From assembly GCF_003334335.1 (NCBI RefSeq), contig NZ_QOWQ01000012.1: a stretch of DNA of 64,000 bases; one strand, given 5' to 3'. The translations under genes and the position numbers were made by a program. The notes below the pieces were generated by a model. That model had not been told where the DNA came from, did no database searches, and worked only from the letters and a program-made list of their open reading frames with translations. The DNA is from Escherichia coli. GTDB taxonomy: Bacteria; Pseudomonadota; Gammaproteobacteria; Enterobacterales; Enterobacteriaceae. Shown one piece after another: positions 7,439 to 48,000 of this stretch. Each line of letters opens with the position of its first letter. The first letter of the stretch is position 1.

Positions 7439-7548
7439 CGTTGAATTTGTCATTTTGTGCCGTGGTGTTTAAACCGCACAGAATAAATTGTCGTGATTTC
7501 ACCTTTAAAATAAAATTAAAAGAGAAAAAAATTCTCTGTGGAAGGGCT

Positions 7549-15537: not shown

Positions 15538-15837
15538 CTGGCACGCGATGGGTTGCAATTAGCCGGGGCAGCAGTGATAATGCGCCTGCGCGTTGGTTCT
15601 CAACGCTCTCAATGGGGGCTCTGTTGGTTCTCCCGCAACGCTACTCTGTTTACCAGGTCAGGTCCGGAAGGAAGCAGCCAAGGCAGATGACGCGTGTGCC
15701 GGGATGTAGCTGGCAGGGCCCCCACCCATTTCTGCCTCCCACCGTTTCGTCAAAAAATCCCAACATGGCTAAACTTTAACCACAACTGACGTCGCAAGAA
15801 TTGTCTGGCTGCGCAGTACGCTTCGGAGGTATGTCTG

Positions 15838-16191: not shown

Positions 16192-16232
16192 GTAGCGTGA
16201 CGGGCTGTGCGGCGTGCCGTCAGCCCAAAAAT

Positions 16233-17783
16233 TCACAAATGTTGCTCGGCCCAGCGTAAGAAATCTTCTTTCGGTAATGCCTTGCTGTAGAGCCAGCCCT
16301 GACCGTAGTGCACGCCATGCTGGCGTAACCACTCTTCTTGTTTACTGGTTTCGATTCCCTCCGCTACCATTTTCAGTTTCAGTGTTTTTGCCATTTCGAT
16401 GATATGCGGCGTGACATTTTTATATTCCAGCGCATCAACGAAAGATTTATCGATCTTCAGAATGTCGACATCCAGATCCTGTAAATAACTTAAACTTGAA
16501 TACCCCGTACCAAAATCATCAAGATAAATTTCATGGCCCGCCTCCCGGTAGCGAGAAATTATCGGGGCGCTGGTTTTCGGATCGGCAAACTCGCGTTCAG
16601 TGAGTTCAAGCGCGATCTGTCTGGGATTAACCTGATAGTGATTGATCATGTCACGCAGCAATTGCGGGATTTTTTCCGAGGTGAGCACGGGGGATTCAAG
16701 ATTGATCGAAATATGCTGCTGTGGATGCTGACGCAGCCAGTCGCCCATATCTTCAAAGACGCTTCTTATAATCAGTAGCGTCAATGGCTCAGAAAGGCCC
16801 GTTTGCTGTGCCAGCGGAATAAAACTATCTGGTGACAACCAACTACCGTCTGTCTGCGGCCAGCGCGCCAGTGCCTCAGCACCGACAATTTTGCCATTGG
16901 CTAAGGAGACAATCGGCTGATAGTGCACGCAAATATCACGATTTTCGATAGCATCCTGCAGCCGATGATGCGGTGACTGAATACGGCGCAAAATACGCAG
17001 CACAAACATCGCTGCCAGCAGGCCAATCACCAACCCGAGCGGTAACCAAATAAAGACTTGCCGATGCCAGCCTTTCTGCAACATTTTCGTTGAAGCCCAT
17101 GTGATGATCGAAATATTCATCTCCGGTAAGGGCAGGATATCGTAAATGATTCCATTATTTTCGATATGCTCACCGGGTGTTTTTTGTAGCCTGGTAATAA
17201 TTCCCTGAGCAATTTCATCGCTGCTGGTTATGACAACGTTATGGACATTGCCAATAATGGCGGCATCAATTTGCCATGAGCTATAGGGAATGACATCAAT
17301 AAAGGAAGCGGGGTCGATCATGACGACATAATGTGCCGTTCCCATGGCGACCATGTAACGGATAATGCCTAAATCGTTATGCGATGTTAACCAGACACGA
17401 TAACCATCTTTCGAAATTTTACCTGGCTCGGGGAAGGTATCGGGCGGACTTTCATGCTCCAGAGACGAACACTGGGGAACGTTGTTATCGATATAAGCCA
17501 CTTCCTGAATATAGCGATAACTGTAAGATACCCGACGCATTTCCATGAGATGGGCTTCGCTACAGGCAGCGCCTTGCCATCTTTCCAGCTCCTGCAGCGC
17601 ATCTTTCCCTTGTGTCGCCACCTTATTGGCTCGAATAGCGACGCGGGAGGAATAGGTATCCAGCTCTTCAATAAACGATGTTTCTACCTGCTGATGGGCC
17701 AGCCAGATGCTTAAGCCGACAGGCAGCAATACTGAAAGAATCAGTACTCCCGAAATAAGGCCGACCAGATGTCGTGTTCTCAC
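16233..17783 (-). CDS. pdeB: c-di-GMP phosphodiesterase with periplasmic CSS-motif domain and EAL domain
   Basis: Track ORF 518 aa from 17789; I prefer the GTG at 17783 (MRTRHLVGL..., 516 aa). C-terminal EAL motifs (QPIVSL, EALARW, DDFGTGYSSL) read in the translation. Confidence 0.8.
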   Translation of the reverse strand: MRTRHLVGLISGVLILSVLLPVGLSIWLAHQQVETSFIEELDTYSSRVAIRANKVATQGKDALQELERWQGAACSEAHLMEMRRVSYSYRYIQEVAYIDNNVPQCSSLEHESPPDTFPEPGKISKDGYRVWLTSHNDLGIIRYMVAMGTAHYVVMIDPASFIDVIPYSSWQIDAAIIGNVHNVVITSSDEIAQGIITRLQKTPGEHIENNGIIYDILPLPEMNISIITWASTKMLQKGWHRQVFIWLPLGLVIGLLAAMFVLRILRRIQSPHHRLQDAIENRDICVHYQPIVSLANGKIVGAEALARWPQTDGSWLSPDSFIPLAQQTGLSEPLTLLIIRSVFEDMGDWLRQHPQQHISINLESPVLTSEKIPQLLRDMINHYQVNPRQIALELTEREFADPKTSAPIISRYREAGHEIYLDDFGTGYSSLSYLQDLDVDILKIDKSFVDALEYKNVTPHIIEMAKTLKLKMVAEGIETSKQEEWLRQHGVHYGQGWLYSKALPKEDFLRWAEQHL

Positions 17784-19255: not shown

Positions 19256-19474
19256 TTAGCGAATAAATTTCCATACTGAGGAAGGGATCTTGTCGTACAG
19301 TTTATTCATGGTCAATTCGGCGAGGCGGTGATCTGCGGCTGAGTAAAATACCGCCAGTTCATTATCTGATAATTCGTATTTATTTTTCTCGATAACACGC
19401 TCCAGCGTGTCAATTGTCTGGCAACGACGTAAACGCATTAAATAATCGGTTTTCGTTAAAGGTTTTTCGGACAT
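19256..19474 (-). CDS. hha: Hemolysin expression-modulating protein Hha (H-NS co-regulator)
   Basis: Track ORF 154 aa is over-extended; ATG at 19474 gives 72 aa [72 protein letters not shown]. Confidence 0.9.
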
Positions 19475-19499
19475 ACTTCTACCTATGGTTGTAATAATT

Positions 19500-20419: not shown

Positions 20420-23572
<3,153 letters not shown>

Positions 23573-23591: not shown

Positions 23592-24785
23592 TTAAGACTT
23601 GGACTGTTCAGGCTGAGCACCGCTTGCGGCTTGCTGGTTATTATCAGCGGTAACTTCTTGTGCTTTTACCTGGACACCAGGACGCACTTTCTGCAGCCCA
23701 CTTATTACTACGCGATCGCCTGCTTTCAGACCTTCTGTCACCAGCCACTTATCGCCAATAGCCTGGCTTGCAACGATCGGACGGGTTTCCACTTTGTCAT
23801 CCGCGCCAACTACCAGTACGGTGGCATCGCCACGCGGCGTACGGGTTACGCCCTGTTGCGGGACTAAAATAGCGTTTGGATTAAGCCCTTCTTCCAGACG
23901 TGCGCGCACGAACATACCCGGCAGCAGAGTGTGATCCGGGTTCGGGAAGATAGCGCGTAGGGTGATAGACCCAGTGGTCTGATCAACGGTAACGTCAGAG
24001 AATTCCAGCGTACCGTCCTGCGGGAACTTAATGCCGTCACTGGTGATCAGTGACACTTTGGCTTTGCCGTTCTCTTGTTTCAGCGTGCCATTCGCCAGTT
24101 CCTGTTTCAGGCGCAGGAAGTCGTTGCTGGACTGGGTCACATCAACGTAGATCGGATCAAGTTGCTGCACGGTTGCCAGCGCAGTCGCCTGACCGTTCTG
24201 TACCAATGCGCCTTCCGTCACGTTCGACTTACCAATGCGACCGCTAATCGGAGAGGTGACTTTGGTGTAAGCCAGATTGATCCGCGCAGTTTCAACGGCA
24301 GCTTTCGCCGCAGTTACCGCAGCATTCGCCTGTTGCGCATCAGCCAGAGCCTGATCGTACTCTTGCTTACTGATGTACTGAGTACCGAGCAGTTTCTGAT
24401 AACGATTCACCGTCAATTGCGCGATATTGGCTGCAGCCTGGGCTTTCGCCAGATCACCTTTCGCACTGTCGTATGTCGCCTGATAGGTCGCAGGATCAAT
24501 CTGATAGAGAGAGACACCTGCTTCGATGTCGCTACCTTCTTTGAAATTACGCTTCAGGATAATCCCGCTAACTTGAGGACGAACTTCTGCGATCCGGTAG
24601 GCACTGGTGCGACCCGGAAGCTCGGTTGTGATCTGCAGAGGTTCAGTTTTGACTGTTACTACGCCAACGGCGGGCATCTGCTGGCCACCTTGTTGGGCCT
24701 GTTTGTCGTCACATCCTGTTAGGGCTAAGCTGCCTGAGAGCATCAGAACGACCGCCAGAGGCGTAAACCCTCTGTTTTTGTTCAT
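23592..24785 (-). CDS. acrA: Efflux periplasmic adaptor (membrane fusion) lipoprotein AcrA
   Basis: Track ORF 409 aa; ATG at 24785 with GAGG SD gives 397 aa MNKNRGFTPLAVVLMLSGSLALTGCDDKQ (lipobox LTGC). Confidence 0.95.
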   Translation of the reverse strand: MNKNRGFTPLAVVLMLSGSLALTGCDDKQAQQGGQQMPAVGVVTVKTEPLQITTELPGRTSAYRIAEVRPQVSGIILKRNFKEGSDIEAGVSLYQIDPATYQATYDSAKGDLAKAQAAANIAQLTVNRYQKLLGTQYISKQEYDQALADAQQANAAVTAAKAAVETARINLAYTKVTSPISGRIGKSNVTEGALVQNGQATALATVQQLDPIYVDVTQSSNDFLRLKQELANGTLKQENGKAKVSLITSDGIKFPQDGTLEFSDVTVDQTTGSITLRAIFPNPDHTLLPGMFVRARLEEGLNPNAILVPQQGVTRTPRGDATVLVVGADDKVETRPIVASQAIGDKWLVTEGLKAGDRVVISGLQKVRPGVQVKAQEVTADNNQQAASGAQPEQSKS

Positions 24786-24874
24786 ATGTAAACCTCGAGT
24801 GTCCGATTTCAAATTGGTCAATGGTCAAAAGTTAATAAACCCATTGCTGCGTTTATATTATCGTCGTGCTATGG

Positions 24875-24898
24875 TACATACATTCACAAATGTATGTA
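24875..24898. promoter_or_regulatory. AcrR operator: 24-bp palindrome in the acrR-acrAB divergent promoter region
   Basis: tacatacattcacaaatgtatgta reads as a perfect inverted repeat (10-bp arms, 4-bp centre) between the acrA start (24785) and acrR start (24927). Confidence 0.85.
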
Positions 24899-24926
24899 AA
24901 TCTAACGCCTGTAAATTCACGAACAT

Positions 24927-25574
24927 ATGGCACGAAAAACCAAACAAGAAGCGCAAGAAACGCGCCAACACATCCTCGATGTGGCTCTACGTCTTTTCTC
25001 ACAGCAGGGGGTATCATCCACCTCGCTGGGCGAGATTGCAAAAGCAGCTGGCGTTACGCGCGGTGCAATCTACTGGCATTTTAAAGACAAGTCGGATTTG
25101 TTCAGTGAGATCTGGGAACTGTCAGAATCCAATATTGGTGAACTAGAGCTTGAGTATCAGGCAAAATTCCCTGGCGATCCACTCTCAGTATTAAGAGAGA
25201 TATTAATTCATGTTCTTGAATCCACGGTGACAGAAGAACGGCGTCGATTATTGATGGAGATTATATTCCACAAATGCGAATTTGTCGGAGAAATGGCTGT
25301 TGTGCAACAGGCACAACGTAATCTCTGTCTGGAAAGTTATGACCGTATAGAACAAACGTTAAAACATTGTATTGAAGCGAAAATGTTGCCTGCGGATTTA
25401 ATGACGCGTCGCGCAGCAATTATTATGCGCGGCTATATTTCCGGCCTGATGGAAAACTGGCTCTTTGCCCCGCAATCTTTTGATCTTAAAAAAGAAGCCC
25501 GCGATTACGTTGCCATCTTACTGGAGATGTATCTCCTGTGCCCCACGCTTCGTAATCCTGCCACTAACGAATAA
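24927..25574 (+). CDS. acrR: TetR-family repressor of acrAB
   Basis: 215 aa; [55 protein letters not shown] (TetR HTH); divergent from acrA. Confidence 0.95.
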
Positions 25575-25701
25575 CCCTGAATCTGACTCCAGGATTTTTC
25601 CTGGACATTTTCGTCGTTGCTATTCTGGTTCACTGCGTCGTGATATTCTTGCGGTTTGACTTTTTCAGGTCGTTCTTCAGGTTCAGAAACCTTCATTCAT
25701 C

Positions 25702-46369: not shown

Positions 46370-46453
46370 ACACCGTCGCTTAAAGTGACGGCATAATAAT
46401 AAAAAAATGAAATTCCTCTTTGACGGGCCAATAGCGATATTGGCCATTTTTTT
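46370..46453 (+). ncRNA. chiX: Hfq-dependent small RNA ChiX (MicM/SroB/RybC)
   Basis: ybaK-ybaP intergenic; acaccgtcgcttaaagtgacggcataataataaaaaaatgaaattcctctttgacgggccaatagcgatattggccattttttt matches the ChiX sequence as I recall it, ending in hairpin ggccaatagcgatattggcc plus T7. Confidence 0.75.

Positions 46454-47746: not shown

Positions 47747-48000
<254 letters not shown>

Follow-up and report, generated by a model that had tools for sequence, protein, structure and literature searches.

The divergent acrAB-acrR control region in a 64-kb segment of an Escherichia coli chromosome: a reference-identical AcrR operator, promoter and marbox

The DNA analysed here (referred to as the window, 64 kb in length) is a piece of the E. 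coli chromosome in which, judging from the sequence and the list of its open reading frames, acrA and acrR diverge across a 141-bp gap at 24786-24926, exactly where the initial annotation had placed it. The genes at this locus are:

20420-23569, reverse strand: acrB, RND permease of 1049 aa (open reading frame; RefSeq annotation of the identical K-12 stretch)
23592-24785, reverse strand: acrA, periplasmic adaptor of 397 aa, ATG at 24785 (RefSeq annotation)
24927-25574, forward strand: acrR, TetR-family repressor of 215 aa, ATG at 24927 (open reading frame and annotation)

Intrinsic multidrug efflux in E. coli depends mainly on the AcrAB-TolC pump, and lesions in acrR or its operator are a recognised route to raised resistance. 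AcrB scored 2421.8 bits against the NCBIfam AcrB equivalog (cut-off 2150) and AcrA 885 bits against the AcrA equivalog (cut-off 765), the latter covering model positions 1-397 of 397. The open reading frame list had acrA start at a TTG at 24821 (giving 409 aa), which was set aside, since both the RefSeq annotation and the complete NCBIfam match (397/397) favour the ATG at 24785. The repressor gene, which open reading frames and annotation alike place divergently beside acrAB, encodes the full-length AcrR of 215 aa that had been proposed, with 215/215 residues (100%) identical to the E. coli AcrR of PDB 2QOP/3BCG. It scored 419.3 bits against the AcrR equivalog NF007949 (cut-off 271), versus 178.7 bits against the model of its paralogue EnvR (NF007430), which is under that model's cut-off of 274. 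The Pfam domains TetR_N (residues 16-62, E 1.9e-19) and TetR_C_2 (residues 84-202, E 3e-53) correspond to an N-terminal helix-turn-helix of the TetR type and a C-terminal ligand domain of the MAATS type. In the literature, acrR is likewise located 141 bp upstream of acrAB, transcribed divergently and autoregulated (PMC9769551).

The DNA from 24500 to 25700 is 100% identical to that of K-12 MG1655, and this stretch, annotated as acrA / acrR, was found in 5424 of the 5426 complete E. coli genomes, the part from 24786 to 24950 having at least 99% identity in 5420/5424. When the whole window was compared base by base with the MG1655 record NZ_CP032667.1, it differed by 15 SNPs and a single 1-nt indel in a T-run (at about 62373, ~50 nt upstream of rhsD, where the window is 1 nt shorter), with the differences spanning 2327-61757 and about 62373. 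The first 21 kb of the window also matches many non-K-12 isolates at ~100%, and the strain is probably K-12-like rather than K-12 proper. Between 20047 and 29274 the base-by-base comparison gave zero differences, meaning that acrB, acrA, the control region, acrR and mscK are reference-identical, and that there is neither a mismatch in the palindrome discussed below nor a lesion in acrR. Other E. coli genomes do carry insertions here: the chicken isolate NZ_CP148461.1 has a 1.1-kb IS481-family insertion just upstream of the acrAB -35 (the equivalent of window 24900-24905, with a 6-bp duplication ATCTAA), which leaves the operator and core promoter intact and shifts the marbox and acrR ~1.1 kb away, and yet others have IS1 or ISApl1 elements inside acrR, none of which occur in the window.

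For a comparison across species, acrR loci were taken from 80 species representatives ranging from Escherichia to Serratia (AcrR identity down to 64%), of which 79 loci were usable. The elements of the operator and the acrAB promoter, the latter assigned through a consensus scan and conservation, are:

24875-24898, no strand: AcrR (and EnvR/AcrS) operator TACATACATTCACAAATGTATGTA, with arms at 24875-24884 and 24889-24898 and the spacer CACA at 24885-24888
24900-24895, reverse strand: promoter-like acrAB -35, TTTACA (consensus scan; 98.7% conserved in 79 species)
24876-24871, reverse strand: putative acrAB -10, TACCAT (consensus scan; 98.5% conserved in 79 species)
24864-24786, reverse strand: putative acrA 5' leader of ~79 nt, its start at ~24864 deduced from the position of the -10 (87-91% conserved in 79 species)

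The operator had been described as a perfect 24-bp palindrome. Its coordinates and sequence are exact, but the inverted-repeat search resolves it into two 10-nt arms that are 100% complementary and 4 nt apart, i.e. a perfect 10+10 inverted repeat in which the spacer CACA is asymmetric (not self-complementary), so that 20/24 positions are symmetric. Read as the reverse complement, the operator is TACATACATTTGTGAATGTATGTA, the 24-bp AcrR site of the literature (PMC9769551, PMC10597343), which bears out its earlier assignment as a TetR-family operator. The AcrR site is described as two 10-bp inverted repeats 4 bp apart, and EMSA on the acrAB promoter (PMC10597343) is the literature source for AcrR binding and its relief by ligands; this palindrome is also a target of the paralogue EnvR in Salmonella, where mutations in the arms abolish EnvR binding (PMC9780535). 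Going by its sequence, then, the repeat is the very site that experiments have defined for AcrR, a TetR-family protein, in the acrAB promoter. It is also not a chance feature: the arm pattern has one match in the window even when 3 mismatches are allowed, and none in 100 shuffles. Perfect inverted repeats with 10-nt arms and a spacer of at most 10 nt gave 15 hits in the window (several of them nested), compared to a mean of 0.85 per window in 20 Markov-simulated 64-kb windows, and the operator is the only A+T-rich repeat among the 15. By our own reading, GCCGGATG-type sequences like those of REP elements occur in most of the G+C-rich repeats.

The -35 and -10 of acrAB are separated by an 18-nt spacer, which is filled by the operator, and the operator overlaps both hexamers. 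Such an arrangement is what one would expect if repression works by occlusion.

The activator site lies on the other side of the -35, outside the intergenic gap:

24927-24946, forward strand: marbox (MarA/SoxS/Rob; RamA in Salmonella), ATGGCACGAAAAACCAAACA, nt 1-20 of the acrR coding sequence

The asymmetric 20-bp consensus AYNGCACNNWNNRYYAAAYN has its sole 14/14 match in the 64 kb at this position, where 0.03 would be expected by chance. The marbox, oriented against acrA transcription, precedes the acrAB -35 by 26 bp. Class I sites are reportedly defined, by Martin et al. in 1999, through the orientation and spacing of the marbox upstream of the -35. For E. coli, the MarA/SoxS/Rob marbox has been described as the first 20 nt of acrR (PMC11642870), and for Salmonella a RamA site of identical sequence was located at -161 to -142 from the acrA ATG, a fragment from -141 to +16 remaining unbound (PMC2527123); the Salmonella coordinates convert exactly to 24946-24927 of the window. 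That activators bind at the marbox, or that it is needed for activation, is taken from these two studies and PMC11633057. The initial annotation had pointed to 24786-24875 for a marbox scan, which is the wrong side of the promoter: this segment is acrA leader, and its best match has 10/14 consensus positions, a background score that is reached 597 times in the window. The second-best marbox match in the window (13/14, ACGGCACAAAATGACAAATT) is on the reverse strand at 7444-7463, between cof and decR(ybaO), where it precedes the decR ATG (7549) by 86-105 nt. Its core gcacaaaatgacaaa is listed among the MarA ChIP-seq targets, under ybaO, and was bound strongly in vitro (PMC5684230), which means that the two best consensus matches in the 64 kb are both known sites.

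Conservation provides a further view of the marbox. Its identity to the window is 0.995 across the 79 species, dropping to 0.65 over the next 10 nt, and its spacing to the operator is constant in 75/79. At the codon level, the window's codon is used in 79/79 species for acrR codons 2 (GCA), 3 (CGA), 4 (AAA) and 6 (AAA), and in 75/79 for codon 5 (ACC), where the remainder has ACT, which is still Y in the consensus. At four-fold codons further downstream (T12, R13, A20, S25, G28), all four bases are used across the 79 species. The frozen synonymous sites in codons 2-6 thus lend independent support to the marbox, although constraints on translation initiation could partly share in it. A positional lesson follows as well, in that a scan confined to the 141 intergenic bp misses the activator site, which lies in nt 1-20 of acrR; full acrR deletions and start-proximal lesions also take away activation (PMC11642870).

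Taken together, the locus is almost certainly, in wild-type form, the region from which the E. coli acrAB efflux operon and its local repressor gene acrR are divergently controlled, and none of the results speaks against this. The control region is already known and reference-identical, and adds nothing to the biology; for this genome, the intact, reference-identical acrR, operator, promoter and marbox form a useful negative annotation, i.e. no local derepression. With these local elements intact, AcrR-mediated repression should work. The earlier description of the locus as wild-type and repressible is therefore sound as far as the local repressor, operator, promoter and marbox are concerned, and does not extend to marR, soxR, rob and acrS/envR, which lie outside the window.

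It is conceivable, but quite unlikely, that the strain is nevertheless efflux-derepressed through outside mutations (in marR, soxR, rob, acrS/envR or lon) that act via the marbox. An intact marbox would pass on such activation, and activation through the marbox and derepression through AcrR are additive, full resistance requiring that AcrR is inactivated and the marbox kept (PMC11642870). Moreover, lon sequence makes up no more than the initial 408 nt of the window, and genes of mar, sox or rob are absent from it. However, there is no positive evidence for this reading, and the window is close to many ordinary commensal, animal and environmental isolates. Efflux-derepressing mutations (e.g. 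in marR, soxR or rob) are found in a minority of isolates.

The wild-type reading is also consistent with how the operator has been kept across species:

Both operator arms unchanged: 63/79 species
A single mismatch in the arms, in every case on the left: 16/79 species
Right arm, AATGTATGTA: invariant in 79 species
Spacer: CATA in 39, CACA in 32, CGCG in 6 and CAAA in 2 of the 79 species
Operator end to acrR ATG: 28 nt in 75/79 species
Identity to the window, left arm: 0.98
Identity to the window, right arm: 1.00
Identity to the window, spacer: 0.83
Identity to the window, -10: 0.985
Identity to the window, -35: 0.987
Identity to the window, 24901-24926: 0.79
Identity to the window, acrA leader: 0.87-0.91

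That AcrR has another, weak site at 24908-24931, 33 bp away from the centre of the operator, and there competes directly with MarA/SoxS/Rob for the marbox, is highly improbable. The segment forms a direct repeat with the operator (78% identity over 18 nt), matches the 24-mer at 14/24 positions, and in doing so resembles published 'predicted AcrR sites', which carry similar mismatch counts (PMC9769551, PMC10597343). Against this, 14/24 matches occur 33 times in the window and arms-only matches of 11/20 occur 114 times, its own dyad symmetry is only 5/10 by our reading, and the segment diverges in Serratia while the operator is kept. It was thus rejected as probably a chance match, 14/24 being background. 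With both strands of the 64 kb counted, 13/24 matches to the operator 24-mer number 123 and 14/24 matches 33, which puts the literature's 'predicted AcrR sites' with 9-11 mismatches (puuA, mdtUJI, flhDC) at background frequency as far as the sequence goes. Apart from the operator itself, the best matches, both 16/24, are at 19470-19493 (in the tomB-hha gap) and at 16224-16247.

That the inverted repeat, instead of being a protein operator, would serve chiefly as a hairpin in RNA or DNA (to terminate or attenuate transcription, or to affect mRNA stability) has a negligible probability, for although a 10-bp stem with a 4-nt loop can be drawn, the repeat is upstream of the inferred acrA start and so outside the acrA mRNA, its stem is A+T-rich with no T-run after it, a terminator scan placed no site there, Rfam at gathering thresholds gave no family in the acrA-acrR intergenic region, the left arm varies while the right arm is fixed across species, with changes that are uncompensated, and direct binding of AcrR and EnvR has been published (PMC10597343, PMC9780535). 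Conserved arms, a free spacer and uncompensated arm changes fit recognition of half-sites by a protein and not a base-paired hairpin. Elsewhere in the window, the Rfam hits at gathering thresholds are the SRP RNA (ffs), the DnaX frameshift element, three naRNA4 copies and sroB, with hit coordinates 15622-15718, 32522-32586, 40613-40690, 46370-46453 and 47751-47929; the SRP RNA and DnaX element are annotated in the MG1655 record, and all hits fit a well-annotated E. coli region.

On the acrR side, the candidate promoter elements are:

24854-24861, forward strand: candidate acrR -10, TATATT or TATTAT (consensus scan only)
24832-24837, forward strand: candidate acrR -35, TTAATA, paired with the -10 at 16/18 spacing (in the least conserved stretch of the region)
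24867-24875, forward strand: alternative candidate acrR extended -10, TGcTATGGT (our own reading of the sequence)

With either candidate promoter, transcription of acrR would start within the operator or shortly before it. An acrR start site was not reported in the literature searched.

The acrA leader contains two further short motifs:

24796-24793, reverse strand: Shine-Dalgarno motif GAGG (sequence)
24806-24802, reverse strand: TCGGA motif, matching the secondary CsrA site reported for Salmonella

CsrA is reported to bind the acrAB leader (PMC5727465). The primary CsrA motif of the Salmonella leader, AAGGA, is absent from the E. coli leader by our reading, which has TCGGA only. The minimum free energy fold of 24864-24760 amounts to -13.2 kcal/mol (z = 0.31), which is no better than that of shuffles. 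Within the leader, and at the same time within the candidate acrR promoter, there is a 20-nt block at 24837-24856, AAACCCATTGCTGCGTTTAT, which is nearly invariant across the 79 species and forms an imperfect inverted repeat, allowing a small hairpin (24835-24856) near the 5' end of the inferred leader. The sequence of this hairpin is conserved, with no compensatory changes across species, and none of the sites described in the literature searched (AcrR/EnvR operator, marbox, CsrA motifs) accounts for the block, which may already be annotated in RegulonDB or EcoCyc. It is rather unlikely that AAACCCATTGCTGCGTTTAT is a regulatory element not yet described; if so, it might bind a protein or form a 5'-proximal hairpin that stabilises the acrA mRNA.

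With binding and regulatory effects taken from the literature, and identity to the characterised elements, positions and conservation from the present analysis, the following mechanism may be proposed, of which we infer the exact transcription start sites and the steric part. AcrR, a dimer of the TetR family, would sit on both 10-bp arms of 24875-24898, and, bound between or over the -35 and -10, should block RNA polymerase at the acrAB sigma-70 promoter. AcrR should also hold down its own synthesis, since the putative start of the divergent acrR falls at the operator or just upstream of it. A ligand in the C-terminal domain would cause AcrR to leave the DNA, and MarA, SoxS or Rob on the single marbox (24927-24946) would recruit RNA polymerase and activate acrAB from upstream. 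The paralogue EnvR/AcrS may use the AcrR operator too, and CsrA would act on the acrA leader RNA.

The closest known system is the acrR-acrAB region of E. coli K-12 itself, which has the same 141-bp gap, the same 24-bp site and the marbox in acrR codons 1-7, with no difference inside the locus; the SNPs and the T-run indel that separate K-12 from the window are all outside it. The control region of Salmonella enterica has the 141-bp gap, the operator arms and an identical marbox (at -161 to -142) in common with E. coli, and its palindrome is bound by EnvR. The representative of S. enterica subsp. arizonae has CATA as spacer versus CACA in the window, and the Salmonella leader is reported to carry both the AAGGA and the TCGGA motif, whereas that of E. 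coli has the latter alone by our reading. RamA is present in Salmonella and not in E. coli.

More generally, the locus resembles systems of the TetR-tetO and QacR-IR1 type, in which a regulator and an efflux gene are divergent, the operator overlaps the promoter and release is induced by a ligand. AcrR likewise has a TetR_N helix-turn-helix, and a palindromic operator lies over the promoter of a divergent regulator/efflux pair. The operators differ in extent, tetO consisting of two 15-bp sites and QacR IR1 of 28 bp, compared to a single 24-bp site with 10-bp arms for acrAB. Unlike these systems, the acrR locus has the site of an AraC-family activator embedded in the coding sequence of the regulator itself.
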